Assembly (NCBI RefSeq): GCF_000829315.1
Contig: NZ_AP013028.1
Coordinates: forward strand, 450,001-482,000
Origin: Wolbachia endosymbiont of Cimex lectularius
GTDB lineage: Bacteria; Pseudomonadota; Alphaproteobacteria; Rickettsiales; Anaplasmataceae
Direction: 5' to 3'
Length of the DNA: 32,000 nt
Below the pieces are notes generated by a model that saw only the letters and a program-made list of their open reading frames with translations, was not told the DNA's origin and ran no database searches. Below are positions 5,735-30,455 of the stretch, piece after piece; within the stretch, counting starts at the first letter, position 1, and each line of letters starts with the position of its first letter. Made by a program: the position numbers and the translations under genes.

Positions 5735-6021
5735 CAACTCCCCTCCCCTTTTTAGTTATGTCTATAGCCTTTCAAATATGGGGAGGTAGTTATTTAAACA
5801 ATTAAATGAAAAATTAAGTAAATCATCCTGAAATTCCTGCTTTTTGTTGCGCAAAGAGATGACTTTTATTTCATTTGCATTATGGTTTAGGAGAAACGCA
5901 GATGAGCATAGCAAAATACCTGAAGTACCTCAGCCGCTAACACATAGCGGAATGACGGTTTTTCGAATCTTTAGGGTGTCATCCAAGTAGCCCCTTCTCC
6001 TGTCGTTCCAGTGCCTTCTTC

Positions 6022-6291
6022 TTGTCATTCCAGCGCGTGACGCACATCTGTACGAACATTGCAATTAGCAGGTAATTTGCGTAACAGATGGTGTCATCCC
6101 AGTGCTCCGACACTGGGATCCAACCTTTCCATAATCATTAAAACGCCGTATTTTAACATAAAACAGCTACTTTTATACTCACCAACTTAATAAAATTCCT
6201 GGATGCCAGTGTCAGCTACTTGCATAACACCCTAGTGGTAGGCTCAAATCACAATGTTCGTACAGATGTGCGTCACGCGCTGGAATGACAA
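6022..6291. repeat. Perfect 40-bp inverted repeat flanking 190 bp, inside copy A
   Basis: 6022-6061 (TTGTCATTCCAGCGCGTGACGCACATCTGTACGAACATTG) is the exact reverse complement of 6252-6291. Confidence 0.9.
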
Positions 6292-6747
6292 CATTTGTTG
6301 TAAAAACAAATGTTCGTTCATGAATTGCAACTAGCTATAAATATTAAGAAATTTATCAAATGAGAAAAAAAGCAAAAGAAACCCTGGTCGGTGGCTAATT
6401 ATTTATATGTACCTCAAATATCGGCGTTTTTATTCTCAGCGCTACGATTCAGCTACTTTTAAATGCAAATAACCAAAACTGTAAACGTTAAGAAATTTAC
6501 TAAACAGGAAAAAGGGCAAAAAAACTCTAGGGCAGCTAGTATTCAAATTCTCCCTTGTCTATTTGACGTTCTACACTATCTTAAACGACTTATAAGCGCG
6601 TTTCAGCTTGTATAGATAAAAACCCGAAGTTTTAAAAAGACGTGAGGTGCACATAGTGCAAAAATTTAAACATGAGACGCCAAATACCCTAAGTTTTTTG
6701 TCATTAACCTGCACAGATTGCGAAGATAAATAAATAGCTTCAGTATC

Positions 6748-6776
6748 ATTATAAGGGGGTTGGCGAAGGTTGTCAA
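6748..6776 (-). promoter_or_regulatory. Perfect consensus sigma70 promoter at the edge of repeat copy A
   Basis: The minus strand reads TTGACA (6776..6771), exactly 17 nt (ACCTTCGCCAACCCCCT), then TATAAT (6753..6748). It is directed into the repeat and away from the adjacent gene 6803-9706. Confidence 0.6.
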
Positions 6777-6802
6777 GTTTCTATGAATGGCGTGTTATAT
6801 GC

Positions 6803-13546: not shown

Positions 13547-13761
13547 ATTTGTTTGCTGTAAAACTAAGTGACATACCGTATAATAGTATATAGAAACTTA
13601 CTATGCAAACAGAGATTAGCAATGATTAATAATTTTTTAGCGTTTAATAGGTATAATAATATAGTACTAATTTAGGGGAAAAAGCATTTACATGAATCTA
13701 TTTTAAGTTAAAATATTATAATATTTTTAGTTAAGTATTTACTTTAAGTAAATTCTATAAT

Positions 13762-13837
13762 AAGTTTAATAGTGTCTGTTACTGCTAATAACCCTCTAGC
13801 CTCACATCTAAAAGCAGTAACAGACACTATTAAACTT
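13762..13837. repeat. Perfect 24-bp inverted repeat with a 28-nt spacer
   Basis: AAGTTTAATAGTGTCTGTTACTGC (13762-13785) is the exact reverse complement of 13814-13837. It lies about 220-290 bp upstream of the coxB start. Confidence 0.9.
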
Positions 13838-14224
13838 TATGACAAATTTACTCATCTGTAAGTATAAAGGCCTGCCTCATATTTTATATAATACACTATA
13901 CTTTATTAACTAACTTTTAATGTCTGTAGCAGCATACATGATTTACGTATTATAGAAAATAATCATAAAGTATACTACTTGTAACCAACATAAAATTTTT
14001 TATTCAGCACCATTTCTATTATTTTCGGGTGTTAAAGCACTTGAAACTTGAAGCAAATGCACCTCGGCTTTCCGCAAGGAATAACTGAGTTATTAAGCTC
14101 TGTAAACAAAATTTTTAGAGAAGTCAATAAAATCTTATAACAAATTTCAATGGTAAATTAAAAAGTTTCCCTACGATGAGAGATTTAGCGAATTTATTAT
14201 GTATCTTGTTTGATAACGAAAGTT

Positions 14225-14690
14225 GGTGTAACCTTTATGCTTAAGAAATTTACCAAATGGAGAAAAAAGCAAAAGAAACCCCGTGGTAGCTAGCTATTTA
14301 CTTTTGTGTCGAAATGTTGGCGTTTCTTTATCCTAAACGCTTAATAAGTGCGACTTAGCTGCTTTTTAATGCAACTAACCTTAGCCATAAACATTTAAGA
14401 AATTCACTAAGCAGAAAAAAAGCAAAAGAAACCCCGAGTAGCTAGTTATTCACTATCTATCTTATGATATTGGCGTTTTTGATGTCTTAAACGACTTATA
14501 AGCGCGTTTGAGCTTGTATAGGTAAAAAAACAGAAGTTTTAAAAAGACATGCAGTGCACATAGTGCGAAAAATTAAACATGAGACGCGAAATATGTTAAG
14601 TTTTTTTGTCATTTAATCTGCACAGACTGAAGATAAATAATAGCTTCAACTCTATAATAACAGGGTTAGCGAAGGTTGTCAAGTAGTTTT
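14225..14690 (-). repeat. Composite intergenic repeat, copy B (lacks the palindrome/intron-site half)
   Basis: Contains the promoter block, the unique block and two ~154-bp tandem sub-repeats (14243-14396, 14397-~14545), all homologous to copy A. Confidence 0.8.
14654..14682 (-). promoter_or_regulatory. Near-consensus sigma70 promoter of repeat copy B
   Basis: The minus strand reads TTGACA (14682..14677), 17 nt, then TATTAT (14659..14654). It points toward the coxB operon. Confidence 0.5.
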
Positions 14691-17300: not shown

Positions 17301-17651
17301 ATGAGCTCTACAATAAAAAAGTTTTTTAATGTTTTATGTTTGGTGTTGTTTTTATCAGGCAATGCAGATGCCTCTAGCGCTGGTAGTGCTGGTATCAATG
17401 ACACAACTGCCCAAGTAATATGTAATATTATTGGTTATGTCTGGGGGATAGGTGGTCCACTCATGACAGTAGTAATAATTGGTGCATCCTTGCTTGCAAT
17501 ATTTGGCAGAATGCCTTGGCCAGCTCTCTTTGCTTTAGGTATGTTTTGTGGTGTATTTTTTGGCGCTAAGACGATCATAATGAACATTATACCCAATGTA
17601 AGCAATGAAGTCAAAAAAATGTTGGACCAGTGTGGACAGAATGGCCCTTAA
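17301..17651 (+). CDS. virB2: TrbC/VirB2-family T4SS pilin paralog 1
   Basis: 116 aa with a signal peptide and two hydrophobic helices. The core is IGGPLMTVVIIGASLLAIFGRMPWPALFALGMFCGVFFGAKTI, the VirB2 layout. Confidence 0.75.
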   Translation: MSSTIKKFFNVLCLVLFLSGNADASSAGSAGINDTTAQVICNIIGYVWGIGGPLMTVVIIGASLLAIFGRMPWPALFALGMFCGVFFGAKTIIMNIIPNVSNEVKKMLDQCGQNGP

Positions 17652-22580: not shown

Positions 22581-22931
22581 TTATTTCTTTTCTTCCGCTC
22601 CACACTTGTCCATAATGGAAGTATTTCCAGTACCACCTACACCACCGATTACTTTTGTCACAATAGCTTTTGCACCAAAAAACACAACGCAAAATACACC
22701 GAGTGCAAAAAGTGCCGGCCAGGGCATTTTACCGAATATTGCAAGCAAAGCCGCACCTATTATTACTATAGTCATAAGAGGTCCACCTATTCCCCAAACG
22801 TATTTAATAATATTGCATATTACTTTGGTAGTTGCATCAAGATCACTATCAGCAGCACTGCTCATATGAGAAAAGGAAATAAATAATATTATAAGAAAAA
22901 CACTAAAAACTTTCCTAATTGTAGGGTTCAT
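22581..22931 (-). CDS. virB2: TrbC/VirB2-family T4SS pilin paralog 2
   Basis: 116 aa with core IGGPLMTIVIIGAALLAIFGKMPWPALFALGVFCVVFFGAKAI, nearly identical to paralog 1. Confidence 0.75.
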   Translation of the reverse strand: MNPTIRKVFSVFLIILFISFSHMSSAADSDLDATTKVICNIIKYVWGIGGPLMTIVIIGAALLAIFGKMPWPALFALGVFCVVFFGAKAIVTKVIGGVGGTGNTSIMDKCGAEEKK

Positions 22932-24531: not shown

Positions 24532-24861
24532 ATGAAAAATTTTCTTCTACTTATAGCTTTAATCCTCTCTTTTGCATTTGATGCAAATGCTGCTAAGCAG
24601 AGTAAAACTCAAGGTGATGAAACATCAGAAGTGATATGCAGCATAGTAAAATATACCCAAAGCATAGGTGGGCCGATGATCACAGTAGTAATAATAGGTG
24701 CAGCTCTGCTTGCAATATTCGGAAGAATGCCTTGGCCTGCTCTTTTTGCACTCGGAGCATTTACTGCTGTGTTTTTTGGTGCTCCTATAGTTGTTTCAAA
24801 AATAATGCCAAACGCTGGTGTGGCTTGTAAAGATGGTACAGTACAGAAAGTGACTCCGTAA
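24532..24861 (+). CDS. virB2: TrbC/VirB2-family T4SS pilin paralog 3
   Basis: 109 aa with a signal peptide and core IGGPMITVVIIGAALLAIFGRMPWPALFALGAFTAVFFGAPIV. Confidence 0.75.
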   Translation: MKNFLLLIALILSFAFDANAAKQSKTQGDETSEVICSIVKYTQSIGGPMITVVIIGAALLAIFGRMPWPALFALGAFTAVFFGAPIVVSKIMPNAGVACKDGTVQKVTP

Positions 24862-25146: not shown

Positions 25147-25781
25147 GTCGAGTAGGCCGGTGGAACTTCCCCACCAGCCCCTCACAGAACTGTGCATGAA
25201 CCTCTCGATTCACACAGCTCTTGTCATTTTTAGCCTTTACATCAAAGACCTACCTTAATTATTTGCTCCTCCCATTTCGGTTGACAAATAACTAAAACCC
25301 AAATGACTTAGTCCCTTCGCTCCATCTCCATTACAGAGACTTCTTCACTACTACGAACTAATCCGCCCCTGTTTTCCGCATCGATACTCTCATCCTCGAA
25401 GTTTAGCTTCTTGGATTTCTCCCTTATTATCGAAACGACAGGTTCCCGCAGTTCTACACAATAGCCCAAAATAGATTCGCGCCACCTCTATGCCGGACGC
25501 CACTACCCAATAAACAAGTTTCCGGTAGATTTATCCCAGGTTAGGATGAAACCCCTGGTTTTGACGTCATCTAAGGCCTTTCGACACTTCTTCAGTGGTT
25601 CATTTTCATTCCCCTCTCTATTTCACACATGACGCATAATTGCGCCTTTTCCATAACGCTCACTACCTTGGCTCTTTACCAAAGCAGCTTATGGTTGTTT
25701 GAAGCCTGCTCTTGTAAACCGGCTCCGAGGGGCCCACCCTCATCTATTGTGCAGCTTCAGCTTACCGCTTCTACGGCACAC
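25147..25781 (-). mobile_element. ORF-less group II intron (ribozyme only, ~635 nt)
   Basis: The minus strand starts with GTGTG (25781..25777). Domain V at 25220..25187, GAGCUGUGUGAAUCGAGAGGUUCAUGCACAGUUC, folds as a 9-bp stem with the AGC triad, a 5-bp stem, a GAGA tetraloop and a 2-nt AU bulge. Domain VI is a hairpin with a bulged A (25153) 7 nt from a ...CGAC 3' end. No coherent ORF is present and the segment is visibly more GC-rich than its flanks. The boundaries match the intron-less paralogous site at 6002/6003. Confidence 0.8.
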
Positions 25782-26267
25782 TCATTCCAGTGCCTCCTCT
25801 TTTGTCATTCCAGTGCTCGACACTAGAATCCAGGAAAGTTTGCTTGTTCACAAGCAAACTGATTCGGTGATCATGGAAAGTAGCTAATCTTGTGCTAAAA
25901 ACGTTCTTGGTGAGGTTGCATGGGAAGCTGGATTCCAGCGTCACGCGCTGGAATGACACCACTTGCTGTAAAAATAAATGTTCGTTCATGAATTGCTTTA
26001 ATATTTAAGAAATTTACTAAATAGAGAAAAAGGCAAAGAAATCCCGAGTGGCGAGTTTTGACTCTATAATACTTTAAATTGGCGCTATAATAATTTGCTG
26101 ACGCTTAGTTCAAGCGCGATTTGGCTGAATGTAGAAAAAATGAAAAAGACATGCAGCCGCTATAATTTGATACAATCCGCCAAAAAATACCCTGAGTTTT
26201 TTACTGAATTTTGTCATTGAGCCTGCAGATCAAAAACAAGTTTTGATTTAGAAACACCCTTGCTGTT

Positions 26268-26296
26268 ATGGTAACGGGTTTGGCGAAAGTTGTCAA
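26268..26296 (-). promoter_or_regulatory. Degenerate copy of the repeat-borne promoter (copy C)
   Basis: The minus strand reads TTGACA (26296..26291), 17 nt, then TACCAT (26273..26268). It is in the same orientation as the intron. Confidence 0.35.
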
Positions 26297-26407
26297 GTAG
26301 TTTTTTCGCATATACCAAAAGCTGTTTTTTATGCGAGAAGTCCACTTTCAGAAATTTGTTTATTTAGATAATATTTAGTCTATACTTTATTTTGACCAAA
26401 AAAACCT

Positions 26408-29794: not shown

Positions 29795-29814
29795 TACAGA
29801 AGCTCAACGAAAAG

Positions 29815-30455
29815 TTTACTTGACAACCTTCGCCGTCACCCTTATAATGATACTGGAGTTATTTGTTTAACTTCCCAATCTGTGCAGGTTAAAATGACAA
29901 GAAAACTTGTATTTGGCGTACTATGTGCACTGCATGTCTTTTTAAAAACTTCGGGTTTTTACCCATACAAGCTGAAACGCGCTTATAAGTCGTTTAAGAC
30001 ATCACCCAACGCCGGATTTTAAAATAGAGAGTGGAATAACTAGCTACCTCGGGGTTTTATTGTCCTTTTTTTCTGCCTGGTAAATTTCTTAAATATTATA
30101 GCTTAGACTAGTTGCGTTTAAGGCATAAAAACGCCAATACTAAAAATAAATACCGACCAGGGTTTCTTTTGCTTTTTTCTCTGTTTAGTAAATTTTTTAA
30201 ATATTTATAGCTAATTGCAATTTATGAACGAATATTTGTTTTTACAACAAATGGTGTCATTCCAGCGCGTGACGCTGGAATCCAGGAACTTTATTAGGCT
30301 AGTGAGCATAAAAGTTATGTTAAAATGCACCATTTTTATGGAAAACTGGATCCCAGTGTCGGAGCACTTGGATGCACCCTCTTGGCAGCACAATGTTTGT
30401 ACGCTCTTCCTGAGTATTCCCATCTGCGTTTCTCCTCAAAATTTTTTACCATAAA
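29815..30455 (+). repeat. Composite intergenic repeat, copy D (sense strand is plus)
   Basis: Contains the promoter block, the unique block, two shortened sub-repeats (ending ~30092 and ~30200), hairpins at 30259-30281 and 30350-30374, and a far-end block CATCTGCGTTTCTCCT (30421-30436). Confidence 0.8.
29820..29848 (+). promoter_or_regulatory. Perfect consensus sigma70 promoter at the edge of repeat copy D
   Basis: TTGACA (29820-29825), exactly 17 nt (ACCTTCGCCGTCACCCT), then TATAAT (29843-29848). It begins 26 nt after the stop of the SPFH gene. Confidence 0.6.

Follow-up and report, generated by a model that had tools for sequence, protein, structure and literature searches.

What is transcribed from a promoter that matches the sigma-70 consensus and is built into a multi-copy intergenic repeat, and to what end is that promoter kept? 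The question is raised by a 32,000-nucleotide stretch of the genome of the Wolbachia endosymbiont of Cimex lectularius (NZ_AP013028.1, positions 450,001 to 482,000; this whole stretch is referred to below as the window), in which four copies of a dispersed repeat, designated A to D, each carry a TTGACA-type promoter near one edge. An earlier note on this DNA, made from the letters alone, had taken the conservation of the promoter to mean that the repeat is a transcription unit. The analysis presented here suggests that each copy is probably a self-contained, self-promoted non-coding transcription unit belonging to a Wolbachia-wide dispersed repeat family. The promoter of the repeat is very probably functional, and the chances are about even that the RNA itself, rather than transcription of whatever follows, is the selected product. 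Wolbachia can be neither cultured nor genetically manipulated, and little is known of its promoters and regulatory RNAs.

Promoters and anatomy of the repeat

The exact pattern TTGACA-N17-TATAAT occurs at two sites in the 32-kb window, 29820-29848 on the plus strand and 6748-6776 on the minus strand, and at none other, against a mean of 0.00 sites expected from 100 dinucleotide-preserving shuffles. The promoters of copy B (TTGACA-17-TATTAT, 14682-14654, minus strand) and copy C (TTGACA-17-TACCAT, 26296-26268, minus strand) were recovered by the same pattern with up to two mismatches allowed. An extended block, CTTGACAACYTTCGCY-N7-TTAYHAT, matches the window four times, exactly at copies A to D, where again 0.00 matches are expected. 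With two exact sites and four block sites observed, a chance origin is therefore excluded. Identity to the sigma-70 hexamers amounts to 12 of 12 positions in A and in D, 11 of 12 in B and 10 of 12 in C, and the spacer is 17 bp throughout. The description given in the earlier note, with exact consensus promoters and 17-nt spacers in D and A and variants in B and C, is thus borne out, as are the distances it had assigned, 23-37 nt past the flanking stop for A, B and D and about 110 nt from bamD for C. The gap between stop codon and -35 hexamer was measured at 26 nt in copy A (YhdP-like gene), 36 nt in copy B (HlyD-family gene) and 25 nt in copy D (Band_7/HflC-like gene), and the -35 hexamer of copy C lies 111 nt from the start of the divergent bamD. 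The four promoters are the following.

29820..29848, plus strand: copy D promoter, TTGACA-17-TATAAT; start predicted at G 29855 from the wMel homologues
6748..6776, minus strand: copy A promoter, TTGACA-17-TATAAT; start predicted at G 6741, to which position 1 of the wMel IGR-1047 and IGR-1021 clones aligns
14654..14682, minus strand: copy B promoter, TTGACA-17-TATTAT; start predicted at G 14647
26268..26296, minus strand: copy C promoter, TTGACA-17-TACCAT; start predicted at A 26261, the wMel homologue starting at 1,247,436 (720 counts per million, CPM)

Repeat pairs and the four-copy alignment place all four promoters at one edge of the repeat and directed into it. The earlier note had put them at the extreme edge of the element, pointing inward; edge and direction hold in every copy, but the element itself begins somewhat before the promoter, the family alignments setting its 5' boundary ~20-25 nt before the -35 hexamer, in an A-rich tract with the consensus ..AGAAACAAAAAAACTAC. 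This tract is intact in copy B, diverged in copy D and mostly deleted in copy A. When copy A is compared with the orthologous site in locus L082, a 17-nt A-rich stretch is gone (6777-6790, minus strand), and the hexamers match the consensus exactly nonetheless; the loss of this UP-like tract may be offset by the exact core promoter, as a possible compensation.

The sequence shared by the family extends from ~-60 to ~+400, counted from the start site, with a 3' mode of 370-420, and comes to ~450 nt. Type 1, to which copies A, B and D belong, consists from 5' to 3' of the A-rich tract, the promoter, a module 1 of ~190 nt and a U-rich module 2, the latter present once or twice and recognisable by the signature ..GGGTTTCTTTTGCTTTTTTCT..TAAATTTCTTAA... 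Type 2, represented by copy C (span 26307-26005), has the promoter block in common with type 1, a different module 1 and a single module 2. The copies and their parts are located as follows.

29803..30238, plus strand: copy D, type-1 core with A-rich 5' edge, promoter and module 1 (~29855-30035), delimited by repeat pairs I3-I17 and the four-copy alignment
~30035-30103 and ~30145-30210, plus strand: module-2 sub-repeats inside the copy D core
6292..6784, minus strand: copy A, type-1 core with the 17-nt A-tract deleted and an orthologous copy in L082
14232..14700, minus strand: copy B, type-1 core that keeps its A-tract and contains two module-2 units; coxB, likewise on the minus strand, follows ~690 nt downstream
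26005..26307, minus strand: copy C, type-2 variant, 82% identical over 304 nt to L012:3392-3675 and 82.6% identical to wMel oTSS_+_1247436

The copies have no terminal inverted repeats, their 5' end (AGAAACAAAAAAACTAC..) and 3' end (..TAAATTTCTTAA-TATTTATAGCTAAA) being non-complementary and no inverted pair spanning a copy. The ~144-153-nt internal sub-repeats are too diverged to be reported by Tandem Repeats Finder. The promoter-bearing core has no counterpart in Rfam in any of the four copies, whether the gathering or a permissive threshold is applied; the Rfam matches in the window are WsnRNA46, in a neighbouring palindrome, pieces of a group II intron and one tRNA. The WsnRNA46 match agrees with the Wolbachia origin of the window, as do proteins that recur unchanged in Wolbachia assemblies. 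A sensitive blastn search of phage and plasmid collections returned no match to the element, which therefore does not appear to be cargo of prophage WO or of a plasmid.

Conservation across Wolbachia and start sites in wMel

Further copies were gathered by scanning a genome collection with a seed internal to the element, the 19-mer AACGCGCTTATAARKCGTT at ~+140 from the start site. Since the seed lies ~140 nt past the start site, the promoter was not selected for. With chance matches removed, the family sample comprises at least 99 distinct copies with at least 230 nt of upstream sequence, and all counts out of 99 given here and below are among the matches listed. Matching Wolbachia come from hosts such as Psylliodes, Cantharis, Tettigetta, Penenirmus and Mansonella ozzardi, several metagenome-assembled genomes match as well, and two complete genomes yield at least 16-17 seed matches each.

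The -35 hexamer is TTGACA in 92 of the 99 copies and the spacer measures 17 nt in all 99. The -10 hexamer reads TATCAT in 62 copies, TATTAT in 12, TATAAT in 11 and TACCAT in 3; its positions 1, 2, 3, 5 and 6 are retained in 91-96 copies, and position 4 is variable (C in 69, T in 17, A in 12). The exact TATAAT consensus is hence a minority variant of the family, whose usual -10 is TATCAT. An intact -35 hexamer is found in 93% of copies, which ranks it near the top of 226 six-base windows (median 43%, 90th percentile 72%). In 815 kb of Wolbachia loci, the pattern CTTGACA-N17-TAYHAT occurs at 99 sites, with module 1 coming next at 95 of them and the type-2 module at 2. Mean column identity in the 99-copy alignment is distributed as follows.

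Upstream flank beyond the A-tract, 36%; A-tract, 65%
-35 hexamer, 97%; spacer, 74%; -10 hexamer, 91%; discriminator, 66%
Transcribed module 1, 81-90%

Conservation of the hexamers above that of the spacer and the discriminator fits selection on promoter function, a pattern that uniform homogenisation would not give. Judging from these alignments, the element is a dispersed intergenic repeat family of Wolbachia with what appears to be a selectively conserved sigma-70 promoter.

Published 5' ends of wMel RNAs fall on the seventh base after the -10 hexamer in at least seven homologous copies (PMC4349823; PMC12558409). One of the two data sets stems from 5'RACE (rapid amplification of cDNA ends) on tobacco acid pyrophosphatase-treated RNA from wMel-infected flies, applied to highly transcribed intergenic regions (Woolfit 2015, PMC4349823). 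The 5' end of IGR-1047 was placed at wMel 1,216,539 and that of IGR-1021 at 1,190,012 (PMC4349823), and the clones begin with GAAGCTATT.. and GAAGGCATT.., respectively (PMC4349823 S1 File). Both inserts are copies of the repeat, and position 1 of both aligns to window position 6741, where the exact 5' base is uncertain by a few nucleotides due to the adaptor ending in GAAGAAA. The other data set is a Cappable-seq study, in whose Table S1 each start site is given with 50 nt of upstream and 100 nt of downstream sequence (PMC12558409). Five of its wMel start sites belong to the repeat.

wMel 131390: 40 CPM, type 1 (PMC12558409)
wMel 713865: 69 CPM, type 1 (PMC12558409)
wMel 528421: 34 CPM, type 1 (PMC12558409)
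wMel 1067756: 45 CPM, type 1 (PMC12558409)
wMel 1247436: 720 CPM, type 2, resembling copy C (PMC12558409)

All five have CTTGACA-17-TATYAT directly upstream and initiate at the seventh base after the -10 hexamer, and they share 77-92% identity with the window copies. In wAlbB, a type-2 start site lies at 1119165. Transferred to the window, the start sites correspond to 29855 on the plus strand and to 6741, 14647 and 26261 on the minus strand; starts had been predicted near these four coordinates in the earlier note, and the prediction coincides in position with the published 5' ends of the wMel homologues. Only uniquely mapped reads were kept in the Cappable-seq study (PMC12558409), and with multi-mapping reads discarded the repeat-derived signal is under-counted.

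Four of the candidate regions of Woolfit (IGR-1021, IGR-1047, IGR-446 and IGR-1049) are copies of the promoter-bearing repeat. For IGR-446 and IGR-1049, which are homologous to window positions 6640-6700 on the minus strand, the reverse transcription primers used were identical in sense to the repeat RNA; they could therefore not prime, which explains the failure of RACE at these regions. At IGR-446, a Cappable-seq start was later found on the opposite strand (oTSS_-_528421).

The wMel IGR-1047 clone is 293 nt long and passes the first module-2 T-run, so that the RNA measures at least 293 nt, and the IGR-1021 RNA is contiguous with the downstream gene, with which it was co-amplified (PMC4349823). 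A search for hairpins followed by T-runs found no intrinsic terminator on the sense strand of the window copies; with termination apparently absent, transcripts would exceed 300 nt and continue into downstream sequence. A weak terminator-like hairpin with a T-run lies at 29952-29965 on the minus strand, within module 1 of copy D and antisense to the repeat RNA, and could halt transcripts entering from the convergent side. The repeat does not conform to a classical trans-acting small-RNA gene in which promoter and intrinsic terminator delimit a discrete RNA: the promoter is present, but no terminator was found, module 2 is unstructured and the wMel RACE product runs past the T-run.

Transcription unit, portable promoter or mobile repeat

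In the proposed mechanism, RpoD (sigma-70) polymerase would read the A-rich tract, the -35 hexamer TTGACA, the fixed 17-bp spacer and a -10 hexamer of the form TAT-N-AT, initiate at a purine 7 nt past the -10, and transcribe module 1 (~190 nt) followed by one or two U-rich module-2 units. Run-on transcription from copies A, C and D would enter a palindrome of the WsnRNA46/ncrwmel01 type. From copies B and C it would reach co-directional genes, namely coxB for B and tRNA-Arg and dnaJ for C, and from copies A and D it would be antisense to convergent genes. Selection would preserve the promoter, and recombination between paralogues would homogenise or swap copies. Any role of the repeat RNA is one that we infer.

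The surroundings of the family copies bear on what this transcription may serve. Upstream, 47 copies abut the end of a co-directional gene (median of ~57 nt from stop codon to -35 hexamer), 31 lie 70-211 nt from the start of a divergent gene and 10 have no long open reading frame (ORF) nearby. Downstream, the first long ORF is co-directional in 22 and convergent in 27 of the 49 assessable copies and is of unrelated kinds, the co-directional ORFs lying at distances of 242 to 1101 nt. The 5' leader that the earlier note had offered as one form of the transcription unit is therefore not supported, and a leader or cis-element of one specific gene was rejected, there being no constant co-directional downstream gene.

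Promoter-bearing copies are found at orthologous loci, where they follow the YhdP-like gene in L082 and L063 and hlyD in L077, with flanking proteins at shared loci 89-97% identical between strains. No empty orthologous site was recovered, all orthologous sites examined being occupied. In L082, the adjacent gene is 96.4% identical (92.9% at third codon positions) and the repeat resembles window copy B, not copy A, a mismatch that suggests sequence exchange among paralogues or the replacement of one copy by another at a favoured site. Spread through an RNA intermediate (retro-type) was rejected by reasoning, since the repeated unit includes the promoter, which is situated upstream of the start site. 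Draft Wolbachia assemblies (L001-L005 and many of L006-L125) often start or end within ~100-250 nt of the repeat. The repeat thus often causes contig breaks and is probably a recombination substrate.

Were the repeat a portable promoter or 5' leader, selected to transcribe the downstream gene, for instance after rearrangements, with an RNA that has no function of its own, one would readily account for the contiguity of wMel IGR-1021 RNA with the downstream gene, for the type-2 copy of L012 located ~130 nt upstream of a transporter-like ORF, for the assignment of the wMel type-2 start (720 CPM) to sucA, ~1 kb downstream, for the co-directional genes downstream of copies B and C and for the missing intrinsic terminator. 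This explanation is nevertheless unlikely, because co-directional neighbours, at 22 of 49, are not enriched, copies A and D face convergent genes, the distance to the co-directional ORF varies over the range given above, and conservation at 80-90% extends over ~200 nt of the transcribed part, for which a promoter by itself would have no need. If the RNA were dispensable, selection on the promoter itself would still need explaining. Another reading is that of a selfish or neutral repeat, resembling a miniature inverted-repeat transposable element (MITE) or spread by recombination, whose promoter would be incidental and would look conserved merely through youth or gene conversion. A high copy number (at least 16-17 seed matches apiece in two complete genomes), breaks of draft assemblies inside the element, and different subtypes at orthologous sites, suggestive of conversion or replacement, are all in keeping with such a repeat, and the wMel genome paper lists uncharacterised multi-copy families, one of them of 45 copies. 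Homogenisation would, however, level the alignment columns, whereas identity is 91-97% in the hexamers, 74% in the spacer and 66% in the discriminator, with the fourth base of the -10 free; spacer length is invariant despite frequent indels elsewhere in the element; and the lack of terminal inverted repeats, the lack of matches in phage and plasmid collections and the occupancy of shared loci by the repeat in strains only 89-97% identical in their flanking proteins likewise speak against it, making a selfish or neutral repeat decidedly improbable.

The element is non-coding. A gene for a small protein or type I toxin, with a peptide of ~37-46 aa such as MFNFLHYVHLMSLLISPRLLGFSLYKLKRAYKSFKTV or the product of the 46-aa ORF at 29882-30022 in copy D, would find some backing in the ATG-started ORF of 25-55 aa ending in ..YKLKRAYKSFKT that 42 of the 99 listed copies contain, in a frame open for a median of 36 codons; but the remaining 57 have no ATG-started ORF in that frame, the N-termini derive from different ATGs and vary with the subtype, no Shine-Dalgarno sequence precedes the recurrent ATG and indels that are not multiples of three, and hence shift the frame, are common. 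In most copies, moreover, the start codon of the copy D ORF is ACG or GAC. Both the copy D ORF and the recurrent frame were rejected as coding sequences on these grounds, and a small-protein gene is extremely improbable.

Several observations weigh against the reading of each copy as a self-promoted transcription unit. Support for structure in the RNA is weak: the whole transcript folds with z = -1.6, the module-2 units (z = +0.8, +1.5, -0.7 and +1.0) fold no better than shuffled sequence, and the RNAalifold consensus of 26 diverse copies reaches only -6.3 kcal/mol. The 5' hairpin is no more stable than shuffled sequence. In a hand-built four-helix model, 92.5% of cells are paired, compared to 24-42% when the partners are slid, with many G-C to G-U changes; only 2 pairs change on both sides, and covariation is 0.137 against a shuffle mean of 0.121. 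The conservation statistics are affected by the fact that copies within one genome are related and exchange sequence, so that the conservation of each column does not reflect independent samples, and the scan, in which at least 120 stretches matched, took in some of the Wolbachia genomes that the collection contains. At the orthologous site in L082, identity amounts to only 74-86% for the repeat, as compared with ~93% at third codon positions in the gene next to it. Activity in the present genome would follow by extrapolation from wMel and wMelPop-CLA, and most wMel copies reach 34-69 CPM as against a median of 111 CPM for primary gene start sites, with multi-mapped reads removed (PMC12558409). 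Given moderate wMel signals for most copies and the discarding of multi-mapping reads, maximal strength is not shown. Of the claim in the earlier note that conservation of a maximal-strength promoter makes the repeat a transcription unit, the self-promoted unit is thus upheld by conservation over 99 copies and by the wMel starts, whereas maximal strength and, given 22 co-directional against 27 convergent neighbours, the 5' leader are not.

Adjoining palindromes and comparison with known systems

A large palindromic element follows copies A, C and D. It matches Rfam WsnRNA46 on both strands and constitutes a separate module.

30239..30394, unstranded: palindrome of the WsnRNA46/ncrwmel01 type directly adjoining copy D at its 3' end; on either strand RF02625 stays below threshold
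6020..6291, unstranded: palindrome of the WsnRNA46/ncrwmel01 type abutting the 3' end of copy A; I10 inverted repeat of 45 nt at 96%, Rfam match at 6074-6248
25785..25976, unstranded: WsnRNA46 palindrome downstream of copy C, the sole RF02625 match above the gathering score

The RF02625 match at 25792-25976 on the plus strand reaches 67.8 bits, the gathering score being 65.3, and 41 bits are obtained on the minus strand. The wMel ncrwmel01 RACE clone (IGR-60) is 90.7% identical to 6140-6214 on the plus strand and 84.7% identical to 30313-30255 on the minus strand. As both alignments fall inside palindromes of the WsnRNA46 type, ncrwmel01 and WsnRNA46 appear to be one palindromic family. A promoter-like site, CCGACA-17-CATAAT, is located at 6107-6135 on the plus strand, just upstream of the ncrwmel01 match by copy A, and its equivalent by copy D, in an ncrwmel01-like unit at 30255-30345 on the minus strand, reads CCGACA-17-CATAAA. 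In A and D the palindrome site faces the repeat promoter at a distance of 470-600 nt, an arrangement from which overlapping sense and antisense transcripts might, speculatively, arise. The same palindrome motif lies downstream in ~40% of family copies.

Repeat and palindrome might then form one dispersed module generating sense and antisense RNA, in which the repeat promoter would drive a hairpin precursor and convergent double-stranded RNA would be processed to small RNAs, a proposal that we regard as improbable. Wolbachia small RNAs of the WsnRNA-46 type reportedly act on host genes, and were the proposal true, the cross-kingdom output of small RNA would be controlled at the repeat promoters.

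The group II intron pieces belong to a remnant beyond the palindrome of copy C.

25147..25741, minus strand: ORF-less group II intron remnant (RF01999 and RF00029), in the orientation of the copy C promoter and outside the repeat, which ends at 26005

Its D1-D4 and D5-D6 signatures are separated by only ~600 nt, a stretch that contains no reverse-transcriptase ORF, indicating an ORF-less or degraded intron, and the remnant is situated ~520 nt downstream of the copy C start site. Transcription of this intron from the copy C promoter, which the earlier note had considered likely, is possible on geometry only and remains putative. A strong terminator-like hairpin follows the intron remnant at 25018-24984 on the minus strand.

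Among known systems, the Correia elements of Neisseria are ~100-155 bp long, with terminal inverted repeats, a TA target duplication and outward-facing promoters. They share with the Wolbachia repeat that both are non-coding, multi-copy and intergenic, have built-in sigma-70 promoters, are transcribed and can affect neighbouring transcription; unlike them, the Wolbachia repeat is ~450 bp long, has no inverted termini, transcribes itself from a single edge promoter and contains tandem sub-repeats. LhrC1-5 of Listeria is reportedly a multi-copy small-RNA family whose paralogous loci each have their own conserved promoter and transcribed sequence. The Wolbachia repeat differs from it in its at least 16 copies per genome, an RNA of ~290 nt or more, a lack of any intrinsic terminator found, weak structural covariation and a modular, variable 3' part. 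Putative mobile promoters are homologous promoter segments found upstream of unrelated genes. The repeat resembles them as a homologous block with a semi-conserved spacer that occurs at many unrelated loci and precedes at least two downstream modules (type 1 and type 2), and differs from them in that ~400 nt of conserved transcribed sequence travel along and that sites upstream of genes are not preferred. The RNAs ncrwmel01, ncrwmel02 and WsnRNA-46 share their organism with the repeat and belong, like it, to the highly transcribed intergenic regions (Woolfit 2015; RF02625). Of these, ncrwmel02 has no match in the window, and ncrwmel01 and WsnRNA46 match the adjoining palindrome only, not the promoter-bearing core.

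Repeats of wMel were catalogued in the 2004 wMel genome paper, and individual start sites are already contained in published tables. In the searchable literature, the promoter and the anatomy of the element were not found described at the level of the family, and the searchable text of PMC4349823 and PMC12558409 links the start sites neither to one repeat family nor to a shared promoter. It follows from the assignments made above that many wMel 'highly transcribed intergenic regions' and 'orphan start sites' are one repeat family with one promoter, and that these lists need rereading. Because standard pipelines drop multi-mapping reads, a large source of non-coding transcription, possibly of antisense or precursor RNA, is under-counted. 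The ~60-bp native promoter, with its variants TATAAT, TATCAT, TATTAT and TACCAT, could also provide a graded expression set for transformation and heterologous reporters.

The window also contains two further repeat families that are unrelated to the promoter-bearing repeat. One is a direct repeat pair of 229 nt with 80% identity (289-517 and 902-1130), and the other comprises three copies of 120-171 nt that differ in orientation (17399-17569, 22669-22839 and 24664-24782). Between copy B and coxB lies an inverted repeat at 13747-13852, 40 nt long and 85% complementary, with a 26-nt loop.

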